Shown one piece after another: positions 18,760 to 20,414 of a stretch of 20,653 nt of DNA; within the stretch, counting starts at the first letter, position 1, and each line of letters starts with the position of its first letter. Both the position numbers and the translations under genes were made by a program. The notes beneath the pieces were generated by a model. That model was not told where the DNA came from, made no database searches, and saw nothing but the letters and a program-made list of their open reading frames with translations. The stretch lies in assembly GCA_024975835.1 (NCBI GenBank), contig GCA_024975835.1_4840.2; one strand, given 5' to 3'. Source of the DNA: a phage.

Positions 18760-19113
18760 ATGGTCAATGCGAGTATTTTCATCAACCGTGGACTGCTTGC
18801 TATAGCCCACTCTCATGCCTTGCACTTCGTTACAACATCCTATGCCAAGCACAAGGCACTCGGGGAGTTCTACGGGGAACTGGAGGGCTTGCTGGACACG
18901 TTTACCGAAGCATACATCGGTGCGGGTGGTCAGTATGTTCCATCATTCGAGAATATCAAATTGTACAACCCAGACCCTATCTCCTATATTAACAGTGTGG
19001 TGATAGACGTCGATGGCATCTACAAGCAGTGTGACTCCCACCTTCAGAACACACTTGATGAAATCAAGACGCTGTGCTATCAGACGATCTACAAACTGAA
19101 GCAGCTGTCGTAA
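18760..19113 (+). CDS. hypothetical protein (117 aa)
   Basis: ATG with GAGGA about 8 nt upstream. His-rich N-terminal half (AIAHSHALHF...HKALGEFYGELEGLLDTFTEAY) faintly resembles ferritin/Dps helices, which is not sufficient for a call. Confidence 0.5.
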   Translation: MVNASIFINRGLLAIAHSHALHFVTTSYAKHKALGEFYGELEGLLDTFTEAYIGAGGQYVPSFENIKLYNPDPISYINSVVIDVDGIYKQCDSHLQNTLDEIKTLCYQTIYKLKQLS

Positions 19114-19139
19114 GTCAATACGAAATAAAGGCATATAAT
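19113..19139 (+). promoter_or_regulatory. candidate sigma70-type promoter (perfect -10 TATAAT, weak -35)
   Basis: TATAAT at 19134-19139. Best -35 candidates AGTCAA/GTCAAT are 14-15 nt upstream, which is sub-optimal spacing. Lies in the longest intergenic gap of the window, upstream of the primase. Confidence 0.35.
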
Positions 19140-19170
19140 TTTGCTCATTATTCACCAAAAGGAAAGGACA

Positions 19171-19257
19171 ATGAGCAAAATCTTTACCCCGGTACATTCA
19201 CAACTGCATGAATCTCTTGGACAGCTTCGCCCACTTCGAGCACAACACGGCTGGTAA
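19171..19257 (+). CDS. micro-ORF (28 aa) with very strong SD; possibly a leader peptide
   Basis: AAAGGAAAGGA then ATG at 19171; translates to MSKIFTPVHSQLHESLGQLRPLRAQHGW. The start codon sits inside an 8-bp perfect inverted repeat. Coding status unproven. Confidence 0.3.
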   Translation: MSKIFTPVHSQLHESLGQLRPLRAQHGW

Positions 19258-19355
19258 ACAAATATTTTGTATAGGGCTTGGCGACAACTGTGTATAGCTC
19301 AAAGTCGTGGTGTAGACTATACTGTGACCGAAGTGTTCCAGAGGCAGAAGATCTA

Positions 19356-20414
19356 ATGAAATTTCTTGACGAGCAATTTATCAACAACGTGTCACCTCGC
19401 CTTGACAAGTTCAAGTGGGAGCGCGTGGGTTCTGTTGCGAACTTCCGTTGCCCTCTGTGCGGTGACTCCACGAAGTCTGCTAACAAGCGCCGTGGATACT
19501 TCTTCTATGATCGGGATCATGACTGCTTCCGGTTCAAGTGCCACAACTGCAACCAGATGAATGGCTGGTCATTTGAGTTCTGGTTGAAGAAGTTCGATGA
19601 GCGCCTCTCAACAGAATACAACATGGAGAAGTTCCGTCTGCTGGGTGATACGTCGGACAGACCACTTCCTTCCCTGAAGCCGTTGCCAAAGCTGACACAG
19701 ACCGCCCGTATTGGCTCAGTGGCGGCAAAACGCGACGAGAGCCTCCTCGGCAATATGCTACGGCTTGATCTGCTACCGCCTGACCATAAGGCTCGACAGT
19801 ACGTACAGTGGCGTGGACTGCCGGAGAGCACTTTGTCCCTCCTGTATTACACACAGCACTTCCGCCAGGATCTACTCCAGTTCGAAACGAACCCTGAGAA
19901 GCAGCTGAAGATCCCCGATGACGAGCGGCTGGTGATTCCGTTCTGGACTCAGGATGGTCGCATGAAGATCGTTCAGGGGCGTGCATTCGACAAGAATGCG
20001 ACACTGCGCTACGCAACAGTCAAGCCCAAGGATGAAGACACTAAGGTGTATGGTGAAGACCGGGTGAACATTCACAAAACCAAGCTGGTTGTGGAAGGTC
20101 CGATTGACAGCCTGTTCCTACCCAACTGTCTTGCATCGGCCGACGCTGATCTACTGAGCGTGAAGGGTGACATTTATATCCCTGATAATCAGTACCGGAA
20201 CCCGCAGGTGTGTGACGGTATTCAGAAGATGATAGATAAAGGTGTCAAAGTTGTACTGTTCCCACCAGACGTTCCTTGGAAGGATATCAACGACATGGTC
20301 ATGCCATCAAAGGGCAACATGTCCATACAAGACCTCCTGAAACTGATCGCCAAGAACGTTTACCAAGGTATGGCCGCATCATTACAATTCGCTGAACTGA
20401 GGAAAGTGCGATGA
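19356..20414 (+). CDS. DNA primase, gp61-like (zinc ribbon plus TOPRIM)
   Basis: Start ATG 19356 (MKFLDEQF...); the track start at 19278 is TTG. Zinc-binding CPLCGD...CHNC, TOPRIM-like LVVEGPIDSLFL and acidic DINDM. Size about 352 aa, close to T4 gp61. Confidence 0.8.
   Translation: MKFLDEQFINNVSPRLDKFKWERVGSVANFRCPLCGDSTKSANKRRGYFFYDRDHDCFRFKCHNCNQMNGWSFEFWLKKFDERLSTEYNMEKFRLLGDTSDRPLPSLKPLPKLTQTARIGSVAAKRDESLLGNMLRLDLLPPDHKARQYVQWRGLPESTLSLLYYTQHFRQDLLQFETNPEKQLKIPDDERLVIPFWTQDGRMKIVQGRAFDKNATLRYATVKPKDEDTKVYGEDRVNIHKTKLVVEGPIDSLFLPNCLASADADLLSVKGDIYIPDNQYRNPQVCDGIQKMIDKGVKVVLFPPDVPWKDINDMVMPSKGNMSIQDLLKLIAKNVYQGMAASLQFAELRKVR

Follow-up and report, generated by a model that had tools for sequence, protein, structure and literature searches.

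The window analyzed here, a stretch of 20,653 nt of phage DNA (GCA_024975835.1, contig GCA_024975835.1_4840.2), belongs to an Ackermannviridae phage. In it, a Dps-like gene and a primase gene are separated by 242 nt (Table 1). The homolog of the Dps-like protein is a confirmed virion protein according to the LIMEstone1 record, and in some records this neighbor is named "starvation-inducible transcriptional regulator." Direct reading places its stop codon at 19111-19113. The first-pass annotation took the 242 nt for the longest intergenic gap in the window. They are indeed the longest gene-free stretch, but they hold the remnant of a gene and are thus not truly intergenic; a longer stretch of 321 nt (7513-7833) holds a real gene on the minus strand (phrog_3833). 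Two minus-strand ORFs (18943-19197 and 19184-19486) gave zero family matches and were treated as mechanical ORFs.

Table 1. Features between the Dps-like gene and the end of the primase gene, in window coordinates
Feature	Position	Strand	Basis or remark
Dps-like/MobD.6 gene (DUF5856)	18760..19113	+	Pfam PF19174 at 1.4e-29; phrog_858
TATAAT, -10-like hexamer	19134..19139	+	Direct reading; kept in relatives
Hairpin 5′ arm, ATTTTGCTCATT	19138..19149	+	Inverted-repeat search
Hairpin loop, with SD AAGGAAAGGA at 19159-19168 (GGA-rich)	19150..19169	+	Direct reading, fold
Hairpin 3′ arm, AATGAGCAAAAT, holding AUG (19171-19173) and codons 2-4	19170..19181	+	Fold, repeat search
28-codon "micro-ORF"	19171..19257	+	First ~6-9 codons of phrog_631, then out-of-frame remnant and derived TAA
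Deletion junction, microhomology CCCGnnACAT	19188..19197	.	Overlap of two BLAST segments
Decaying remnant portion	19188..19281	+	Carries a 1-nt deletion and the TAA
Last 32 codons of the old gene, in frame, TAA overlapping the primase ATG	19258..19356	+	phrog_631 match, codon alignment
Primase SD, AGAGG	19340-19344	+	Within the in-frame 32-codon segment listed above
DNA primase, gp61-like, 352 aa	19356..20414	+	Annotations of relatives

The Dps-like gene is codirectional with the hairpin listed in Table 1, the stem of which begins 25 nt beyond the 3′ end of the gene. A terminator (18715-18745) and a TATAAATA motif (18308) are both found upstream of the Dps-like gene, and the terminator scan returned nothing after 19113, that is, no terminator between this gene and the hairpin. 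A scan of both strands of the region 18500-20000 against Rfam gave sub-threshold noise only, the best match (potC, minus strand, 25 bits where 44 are required) being the hairpin itself.

A Deleted Gene between the Dps-like Gene and the Primase

The 242 nt represent a pseudogene, namely what is left of a nuclease-like gene of the family phrog_631. BLAST matches the two ends of the gap with those of SKML-39 gp081 and LIMEstone1 ORF077; compared with SKML-39 gp081, the window lacks 425 bp. This internal deletion, computed from the alignments, occurs in six genomes, those of the window phage and of five further E. coli phages. The identical junction is found in LHE287, ZQ1, PC3, and A221, and the junction and the TAA are common to all five short forms. 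The remaining sequence has both ends of the gene homologous to the intact one, the interior missing, and the frame disrupted. The last 32 codons still match the phrog_631 profile (E = 2.5e-4, profile positions 170-199). The decaying portion is only 76-78% identical to the intact genes, versus 97-99% for the next 74 nt (Fisher p = 1.7e-5), and the ZQ1 group has an additional 2-nt insertion after the micro-ORF. Faster divergence and extra indels indicate relaxed constraint on the remnant. As a test for purifying selection on the hairpin arms, a comparison with the decaying part among the five short-form phages gave 1/24 against 12/94 variable sites, a difference that is not significant (p = 0.46).

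The remnant thus resembles other deletion pseudogenes of phage genomes in keeping both gene ends and in its short-repeat junction, frameshift, premature stop, indels, and faster divergence. It differs from them in the high identity of its last 74 nt to the intact genes, which is probably due to the ribosome-binding region of the primase, recombination being another possible source. In the ancestor, a phrog_631 gene of ~203 aa would have stood in this place, downstream of the Dps-like gene and upstream of the primase. It would first have lost 425 internal bp by a deletion between short repeats and then acquired a 1-nt deletion and point changes; the leader, the first ~6-9 codons, and DNA equal to the last ~55 codons would have remained.

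The intact ~203-aa gene occupies this slot in almost all related Ackermannviridae, including Agtrevirus, Limestonevirus, Kuttervirus, Taipeivirus, Miltonvirus, and Nezavisimistyvirus, and of the 283 phage records with a match, nearly all cover the long form. Its stop codon overlaps the primase start (TAATG/TGATG/ATGA). From these computed cistron overlaps, the leader of intact relatives could reach the primase only by translational coupling. Proteins of phrog_631 share an invariant D43...E57-x-K59 motif. A model of the protein (pLDDT 89) has 3dnx as its best PDB match (E = 1.3e-3, probability 1.0), followed by LlaBIII, SSO0001, NucS, BamHI, and Card1. The lost gene is therefore predicted to encode a PD-(D/E)xK nuclease of the MmcB-like type. 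With MmcB-like and other PD-(D/E)xK nucleases (PF06319; 3dnx) it shares the D...E-x-K motif and, in the model, a resemblance to 3dnx, restriction enzymes, Cas4, NucS, and Card1; unlike them, it has an extra C-terminal helical domain specific to the phage family. Searches of the phage proteins against Pfam and NCBIfam gave no match reaching threshold, and one distant homolog matches the MmcB-like PF06319 weakly, below the cut-off (E = 0.026). A metagenome scan with the protein profile found only distant, nonsyntenic homologs, the leaders of which are not comparable.

The deletion changes the reading of the other elements annotated in the gap. A 28-codon ORF with a strong SD is present as claimed, but it consists of a 5′ gene stump followed by frameshifted debris, the deletion junction falling within its codons 6-9. 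The peptide has no family match. If translation of this ORF controlled the primase, by attenuation or as a leader peptide, one would expect the ORF to be maintained in related phages. When its conservation was looked at, it was found to be confined to the short-form genomes, where the peptide evolves freely: between the window and LHE287, changes are mostly nonsynonymous (seven nucleotide changes versus one synonymous). The good SD, the position upstream of the primase, and the old C-terminus, which follows the ORF stop in frame and ends on the primase ATG, would all suit such control. However, the ORF is limited to the deletion lineage, its residues change freely, a terminator or alternative structure is absent downstream, and the ZQ1 group has its 2-nt insertion past the ORF. 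The leader-peptide explanation is thus largely refuted, and we give it hardly any weight.

A second imperfect dyad had been placed at 19286-19327, ahead of the primase start. Six complementary base pairs do exist, but the real place is 19288-19297 / 19317-19326, in former coding sequence. Pairing is restricted to GTATAG (19292-19297) and CTATAC (19317-19322), the flanking CTGTG being direct repeats. These segments correspond to the old codons C-I-A and D-Y-T and are not kept in Kuttervirus. The inverted-repeat search at minimum length 8 does not report the dyad, its region folds no better than shuffled sequences (z = +1.6), and neither the terminator scan nor folding finds a terminator or excess structure at 19280-19360.

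A Hairpin over the Start Codon

The first-pass annotation reported an 8-bp inverted repeat (TTGCTCAT at 19141-19148 and ATGAGCAA at 19171-19178). These arms are confirmed, but the true length of the perfect repeat is 12 bp, with 100% complementarity in the repeat search and a loop of 20 nt. This is the longest perfect inverted repeat of the window. Of random gaps of 242 nt, about 10% would contain an 8-bp repeat and 0.07% one of 12 bp (P ~7e-4), and 0.05 of the latter are expected per 20.6 kb. The computed RNA hairpin folds at −15.2 kcal/mol (z = −5.6), whereas an RNA beginning at 19146 is without structure (z = +0.5). The earlier claim that the AUG is buried in the stem while the strong SD sits in the loop holds for the 12-bp stem. 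Among the real start codons of the window and of 100 kb of Ag3, no other has a comparable stem. Local folding of all start sites of the window (minimum free energy and accessibility) is uninformative: this site does not stand out, as GC-rich terminators score equally. The best reading of these sequences is a putative start-burying RNA hairpin beside a promoter-like −10 hexamer.

The last two nucleotides of this hexamer belong to the 5′ arm. It had been called a promoter, and a perfect TATAAT is indeed present and conserved, but it lacks a −35 and is missed by the two-hexamer promoter scan for that reason. Inspection by eye of the sequence upstream of it found no −35, extended −10 (TGn), or MotA-box-like element, and the published Ag3 promoter list has no entry at this leader. 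A perfect TATAAT alone is not rare, as there are four on the plus strand of the window, and its weight comes from its conservation. It is kept in Aglimvirinae, Kuttervirus, Taipeivirus, and three further lineages (L088, L093, and L094), with diverged flanks. In every hairpin-bearing lineage, the −10-like hexamer overlaps or sits in the 5′ arm or the loop. In the window, the transcript would be expected to start near 19145-19148, ~7 nt past TATAAT and inside the 5′ arm. A search of the literature found no transcript-start, expression, or transcriptome data for Ackermannviridae.

Conservation of the repeat was also looked at in related phages, and the hairpin is both kept and covarying. Conservation and covariation were computed across lineages. 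The TATAAT and the arms are maintained in three groups (Aglimvirinae, Kuttervirus, and Taipeivirus), while the flanks and the loop diverge. In Kuttervirus and Taipeivirus, a compensatory change from U-A to C-G affects codon 2 (Ser to Gly). The nuclease-type hairpin thus provides one compensatory pair, which counts as a single evolutionary event, and one change from U-A to U.G. Lineages with phrog_30076 as the first cistron have a different hairpin, of 12-18 bp, that buries the AUG of this other gene. It shows four compensatory pairs among four sequences (1-4 of 500 shuffles reach the observed values) and fold z-scores from −3.7 to −5.9. Further designs are found in L086 and L088, with the −10 inside the 5′ arm. 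An IUPAC scan of IMG/VR for the box and the arms gave no new Ackermannviridae variants; contigs of unrelated origin in IMG/VR gave a mix of complementary and noncomplementary chance matches.

The pattern of change also bears on whether the palindrome acts as DNA. A dimeric repressor binding both arms, and thereby overlapping the −10, could shut the promoter; the perfect palindrome over TATAAT, with arm centers 32 bp apart, and the annotation of the neighbor gene as a transcriptional regulator in some records would fit such an operator. However, G.U and U.G pairs are retained in the Klebsiella phages, L082, and L086, and these states keep RNA pairing while breaking DNA symmetry. Moreover, the arm sequences are unrelated between lineages, having been replaced, and the start codon is nevertheless always inside. 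One of the arms is constrained by codons 1-4, which would be odd for a half-site. Hence, the operator that had been proposed is disfavored, and we regard it as improbable.

The hairpin might instead serve the mRNA of the Dps-like gene, as a 3′ stabilizer or weak terminator, since it is stable and starts 25 nt past the stop codon of that gene. Yet it has an AU-rich stem without a U-tract, is uncalled by the terminator scan, shows covariation at codon 2, and in every case includes the AUG that lies downstream; in L086 and L088, a hairpin is present although a genuine terminator already precedes it. Such a role is very improbable.

Read-Through, Translational Masking, and the T4 Precedent

The device best matching the leader, a hairpin masking a translation start, has precedents in phage T4 (PMC3014915, PMC2988022). 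In T4 genes e, soc, 49, I-TevI/II/III, and segB, and in Aeh1 mobE, a helix masks the AUG and/or the SD on read-through transcripts. A −10-only promoter lies at or inside the 5′ arm, and its own transcripts cannot form the helix; the sequence at our locus appears to share this design. Several of the genes so regulated encode nucleases, as the gene lost here is predicted to do. The phage is itself T4-related, and Ackermannviridae encode gp55, gp33, and gp45.

We infer promoter activity and a start site at the hexamer, translational masking by the stem, early and late transcript classes, and a vestigial status in the window. On read-through RNA from the Dps-like gene, the hairpin would pair the AUG and codons 2-4, and ribosomes could not start. 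Transcripts from the embedded −10 (from ~19146) would lack most of the 5′ arm and would be translatable, the same logic as in T4 genes e, soc, 49, and I-TevI. The gated cistron of intact relatives would head a chain of overlapping cistrons ending in the primase; in the window, it would be the junk 28-codon ORF. As this ORF is junk and stops 98 nt ahead of the primase ATG, the hairpin of the window is probably a relic. The proposal that the element gates primase expression is not supported here: it belongs to the deleted gene, and its coupling to the primase is broken. The promoter likely still supplies primase mRNA, with the primase starting from its own SD. Overall, we favor a pseudogene gap preceded by the relic T4-type hairpin/promoter leader of the deleted gene, with a probability of about 0.6.

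The distribution of the hairpin partly follows the expected exposure to read-through. It is weak or absent in all three lineages with an upstream gene of opposite orientation (L087, L089, and L091). The correlation is imperfect, because L086 and L088 have strong hairpins despite a terminator directly upstream.

The temporal order of the two transcripts may differ from that of T4. If it were the same, the −10-like box would be a late promoter of the gp55 type, the nuclease-like gene would be late, early or middle read-through would be masked, and the primase would be made from its own SD. The T4 precedents, several of them nucleases, are all late genes with late promoters that are also carried on long transcripts of the early or middle class (PMC2988022). 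The gp55, gp33, and gp45 genes and a box without −35, as in late promoters, would also agree with this order. The T4 late promoter motif is nevertheless not found at the box: TATAATTT matches TATAAATA at 6/8 positions, and other lineages have TATCAT, whereas the window phage uses a genuine TATAAATA elsewhere (18308), a motif also on the Ag3 list. In addition, the genes immediately upstream have a late or structural appearance and a terminator behind them, which leaves early read-through without an obvious source and the primase without another pre-replicative promoter. A T4-like polarity is accordingly unlikely in our view. The preferred reading of a T4-type leader differs from T4 in several respects: its box reads TATAAT or TATCAT where T4 has the late TATAAATA; its surroundings suggest the opposite polarity, with the promoter of the leader pre-replicative and the read-through late; and the gated cistron heads a primase-coupled chain, the gated gene being dead in the window.

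We tentatively extend this, as a possibility that we regard as rather unlikely, to a family-wide "translational insulator" between a late virion gene and a pre-replicative primase operon, which would silence late rather than early read-through. Such a module might travel with, or be re-invented for, whichever cistron comes first (the nuclease, the phrog_30076 cassette, or the chimeric gene of L093). The deletion lineage may keep it since translation of the stump ORF could tune the fate of primase mRNA.

Hairpins of this kind have long been known from phage T4, and the finding, although real, is largely ordinary in that respect. Its first consequence is for annotation, where the gap should be recorded as a dead gene without calling the micro-ORF. 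Some of the members that infect E. coli can do without the nuclease-like gene. In Ackermannviridae, which serve in biocontrol and phage therapy, there is an unannotated and conserved element predicted to control translation, built like the classic e/49/I-TevI device of T4 and placed to gate the primase-coupled gene of a predicted nuclease. The intact gene, the swapped first cistron with a different hairpin, the divergent neighbors without hairpin, and the deletion relic form a natural series, which is a ready comparative set for the evolution of such hairpins and for a possible reversal of their temporal polarity.

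The gap upstream of the primase

All 283 phage records that match the region belong to Ackermannviridae (ViI-like phages), the closest being Escherichia phage LHE287 (97.8%). By comparison of sequences, the gap upstream of the primase is a dead gene. An intact gene of 201-212 aa lies immediately 5' of the primase in SKML-39, Ag3, AV101, YX22, LIMEstone1, and Vi01, and in the same slot in CBA120, heyday, a Klebsiella Taipeivirus, Serratia 3M, and Erwinia Bue1. A Dps-like gene is annotated just 5' of it in all 11 genomes except the last two. The window aligns with ~28 nt at the 5' end and ~170 nt at the 3' end of this gene and lacks 425 bp (reference SKML-39), the two alignment segments overlapping at the deletion junction in a short repeat. 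The junction, the derived TAA stop, and a 1-nt deletion are common to the window, LHE287, ZQ1, PC3, and A221 (the ZQ1 group having an extra 2-nt insertion). PH4, which completes the short form (the window and five other E. coli phages with the deletion), is counted from a single ~1,004-bp match, the junction comparison covering the other four.

Direct reading finds the TATAAT, both octamers of the inverted repeat, the 28-codon ORF, its GGA-rich Shine-Dalgarno (SD) in the loop, and the primase ATG where the first-pass annotation had placed them. The ORF had been proposed as a leader peptide. From the alignment, the junction, and the frame, it consists of the first ~6-9 codons of the lost gene (the junction falling within codons 6-9) followed by out-of-frame debris. 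Its peptide is not conserved in relatives, and the window differs from LHE287 by seven nonsynonymous nucleotide changes and one synonymous; this pattern of change is not that of a conserved leader peptide. A leader-peptide attenuator is therefore very improbable, given an ORF born of a deletion and evolving freely, with no downstream structure.

The 32 codons 3' of the ORF stop keep the old frame and match phrog_631 (E = 2.5e-4), and the TAA closing them overlaps the primase ATG. In both the window and LHE287 these codons are intact, come directly after the ORF's TAA and in frame with it (19258-19356 in the window), and run onto the primase ATG. The two deletions sum to 426 bp, or 142 codons, and before the TAA arose there may have been a coupled mini-ORF of 61 codons. 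Identity to intact genes is 76-78% at 19188-19281 and 97-99% in the last 74 nt (p = 1.7e-5). The latter contain the primase SD, in the old CAG-AGG codons, conserved family-wide. Homing-associated gene conversion might explain the near-identity of these 74 nt across Aglimvirinae. The TAATG that joins nuclease and primase is a hot spot for insertions: LIMEstone1 has the HNH homing endonuclease F-LimV there, YX22 has an ORF of the same size (657 nt) with only a hypothetical annotation, and AV101 and locus L088 have unrelated ORFs of 94 aa and 91 aa.

The second dyad described before the primase start has a real 6-nt core, GTATAG/CTATAC, although its coordinates were off by ~2 nt. It is flanked by CTGTG as direct repeats, lies within old codons C-I-A and D-Y-T of the lost gene, and is broken in Kuttervirus; its region shows no excess of RNA folding over shuffles (z = +1.6).

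In ZQ1, PC3, and A221 the GenBank primase start (L006:960, L007:960, L008:959) is 201 nt too far downstream, giving 285 aa; reading from the upstream ATG gives the full, intact N-terminus with its zinc ribbon. In PC3 a minus-strand ORF, likely spurious, is annotated at the primase start as well.

Coordinates of features in the window and, with L-numbers, in retrieved related loci
Feature	Position	Remarks
Gene-free stretch, second longest	1018-1209	192 nt; TATAAT at 1013, end of preceding gene
980-aa ORF	15324-18266	phrog_3867 (function unknown)
GC-rich hairpin AAGCCCCTTCGGGGGCTT and TATAAATA	18291-18315	hairpin directly 5' of TATAAATA
TATAAATA	18308-18315	canonical T4-type late -10
Gene downstream of TATAAATA	18341-18661	phrog_4048
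Strong intrinsic terminator	18715-18745	loop CTAAATAC; 5' of Dps-like gene
Dps-like/MobD.6 gene	18760-19113	DUF5856, phrog_858
TATAAT	19134-19139	
Hairpin arms	19138-19149 / 19170-19181	over start codon
28-codon ORF	19171-19257	
Deletion junction	19188-19197	
Second dyad, core	19292-19297 / 19317-19322	
Primase	19356-20414	gp61-type
phrog_30076 cassette	L082:1007-1501, L084:992-1501, L085:1004-1501, L092:1022-1501, L029/L032:1007-1501	159-169 aa
Inserts at nuclease/primase junction	L003:1587-2243, L009:1384-2040, L005:1377-1661, L088:2125-2400	
Region of Dps-like gene loss	L093:700-1508	

The leader and the lost gene

The inverted repeat, reported as 8 bp and perfect, is present but was understated: a repeat search gives 12 perfect nt with 20 nt between the arms, sharing the last two bases of the TATAAT. 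No other perfect inverted repeat in the window is as long. By first-order Markov simulation, chance gives an 8-bp repeat in ~10% of 242-nt gaps and a 12-bp repeat in 0.07% (0.05 expected per 20.6 kb). The 44-nt RNA hairpin folds at -15.2 kcal/mol (z = -5.6 versus dinucleotide shuffles).

Judged by its retention in relatives, the TATAAT with the hairpin is the conserved leader of the lost gene. The leader is nearly invariant in Aglimvirinae, and Kuttervirus and Taipeivirus keep TATAAT and the arms although flanks and loop have been rewritten. The arms there are TTGCCCAT...ATGGGCAA versus TTGCTCAT...ATGAGCAA, with a compensatory change from U-A to C-G, which also replaces Ser2 by Gly2, and a change from U-A to U.G at the inner pair. 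Because there is a single compensatory event, this covariation is modest evidence alone. Nuclease-type hairpins in relatives have fold z of -2.3 to -5.0. That the hairpin is a 3' stabiliser or terminator of the Dps-like mRNA has very little probability, since it is without a U-tract and the covariation with codon 2 would be left unexplained. Among five to six short-form genomes, 1/24 sites vary in the arms versus 12/94 in the decaying segment, a nonsignificant difference (p = 0.46), so the hairpin in the window may be a relic.

The lost gene is a member of phrog_631 (function unknown) and matches phrog_5429, "DNA repair protein," more weakly. Pfam and NCBIfam searches with its protein gave no match; a distant homolog gives a weak, subthreshold match to MmcB-like PF06319 (E = 0.026). 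D43, E57, and K59 are invariant in 29 homologs. The best PDB match of the AlphaFold model (pLDDT 89, pTM 0.86) is 3dnx (E = 1.3e-3, probability 1.0), followed by the PD-(D/E)xK enzymes LlaBIII nuclease domain, SSO0001, NucS/EndoMS, BamHI, Card1, and Can2. The product is probably a PD-(D/E)xK nuclease, an activity predicted from the model.

Start-codon hairpins in other lineages

Further lineages were retrieved through protein homologs. In several, a phrog_30076 gene separates the Dps-like gene from the nuclease, whose start overlaps the phrog_30076 stop. The cassette is inserted exactly 5' of the nuclease ATG, its own hairpin and TATCAT box replacing the nuclease-type leader. This wholly different hairpin again buries its gene's own AUG, with arms CATGGCGTGAGT/ACTCATGCCATG in L082 and CATAGCGTGAGT/ACTCACGCTATG in Klebsiella phages, and an outer stem lengthens it to 18 pairs (fold z -3.7 to -5.9). 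Both-sided changes occur at four pairs, one passing through G.U, among only four distinct sequences; the observed values are reached in 1-4 of 500 shuffles, and the signal collapses in every slid control. A DNA operator is quite unlikely, in view of the G.U states in the hairpins and of arm sequences that are unrelated between lineages and yet always include the AUG.

The phrog_30076 version has a conserved TATCAT in the loop, just 3' of the 5' arm; in L086 TATCAT is within the 5' arm, and in L088 TATAAT itself pairs with the AUG region. All three lineages whose upstream neighbor is encoded on the other strand (L087, L089, L091) have a weak hairpin or none (z = -1.3, +1.0, +1.1). Those with a terminator directly upstream are mixed: L086 and L088 have a strong hairpin, whereas in L090, L092, L093, L094, and Serratia 3M it is weak or missing. 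No perfect nonterminator stem of at least 9 bp over another real start codon was found in 100 kb of Ag3 plus the window.

Locus L093 has lost the Dps-like gene, of which a stump of the 3' end is left with the terminator. Codons 1-3 of the nuclease (ATGGGCAAG) open its 221-aa gene and are fused to an N-terminus resembling that of phrog_30076 (CISIN...); the leader and these codons were apparently kept as a module. With the pattern TATAAT + TGCNCAT ... ATGNGCAA, complementary bases stand at the two N positions in 6 of the 14 distinct matches outside Ackermannviridae (25% expected), including the unrelated IMG/VR contigs L039, L040, L043, L047, L055, and L061. This could hint that other phages, too, place the complement of the start codon region after a -10.

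Genomic setting and proposed timing of expression

The terminator loop corresponds to the site marked "putative late promoter" in the LIMEstone1 record. The last ~60 residues of the 980-aa ORF resemble phrog_7673, an internal head protein family, and Ag3 has another gene set at this position.

The geometry of the leader is that of T4 e, soc, 49, and I-TevI and of Aeh1 mobE, where a helix forms over the ribosome-binding site in long transcripts and a promoter in or beside the 5' strand gives transcripts unable to fold it (PMC3014915; PMC2988022). A sigma-70-type start ~7 nt 3' of TATAAT would fall near 19146, and RNA from about there is unstructured (-4.1 kcal/mol, z = +0.5). Ackermannviridae have gp55, gp33, and gp45, and their late promoters are TATAAATA (PMC3121705), unlike the leader box, which is TATAAT or TATCAT. 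The upstream context looks late, with the terminator and a Dps-like gene whose homolog the LIMEstone1 record lists as a confirmed virion protein. Because of this context and of the box's difference from TATAAATA, we infer that the box would be the pre-replicative promoter of a nuclease-primase unit and that the hairpin would silence the gated cistron in late read-through RNA. The opposite, T4-type temporal polarity of the device is possible.

The first-pass annotation had the element gating the primase. In intact phages, overlaps of stop and start codons (TAATG, TGATG, ATGA) link the gated cistron to the primase, and only through this link could the hairpin gate it; in the window, as its reading frames stand, the link is broken. 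No promoter or structure is annotated at the leader site in the Ag3 or LIMEstone1 papers, and no transcript-start results for Ackermannviridae were found in the literature searched. The pseudogene beside the window's copy of the hairpin is an ordinary deletion pseudogene; the control device belongs to a well-known kind, and this instance of it is new.
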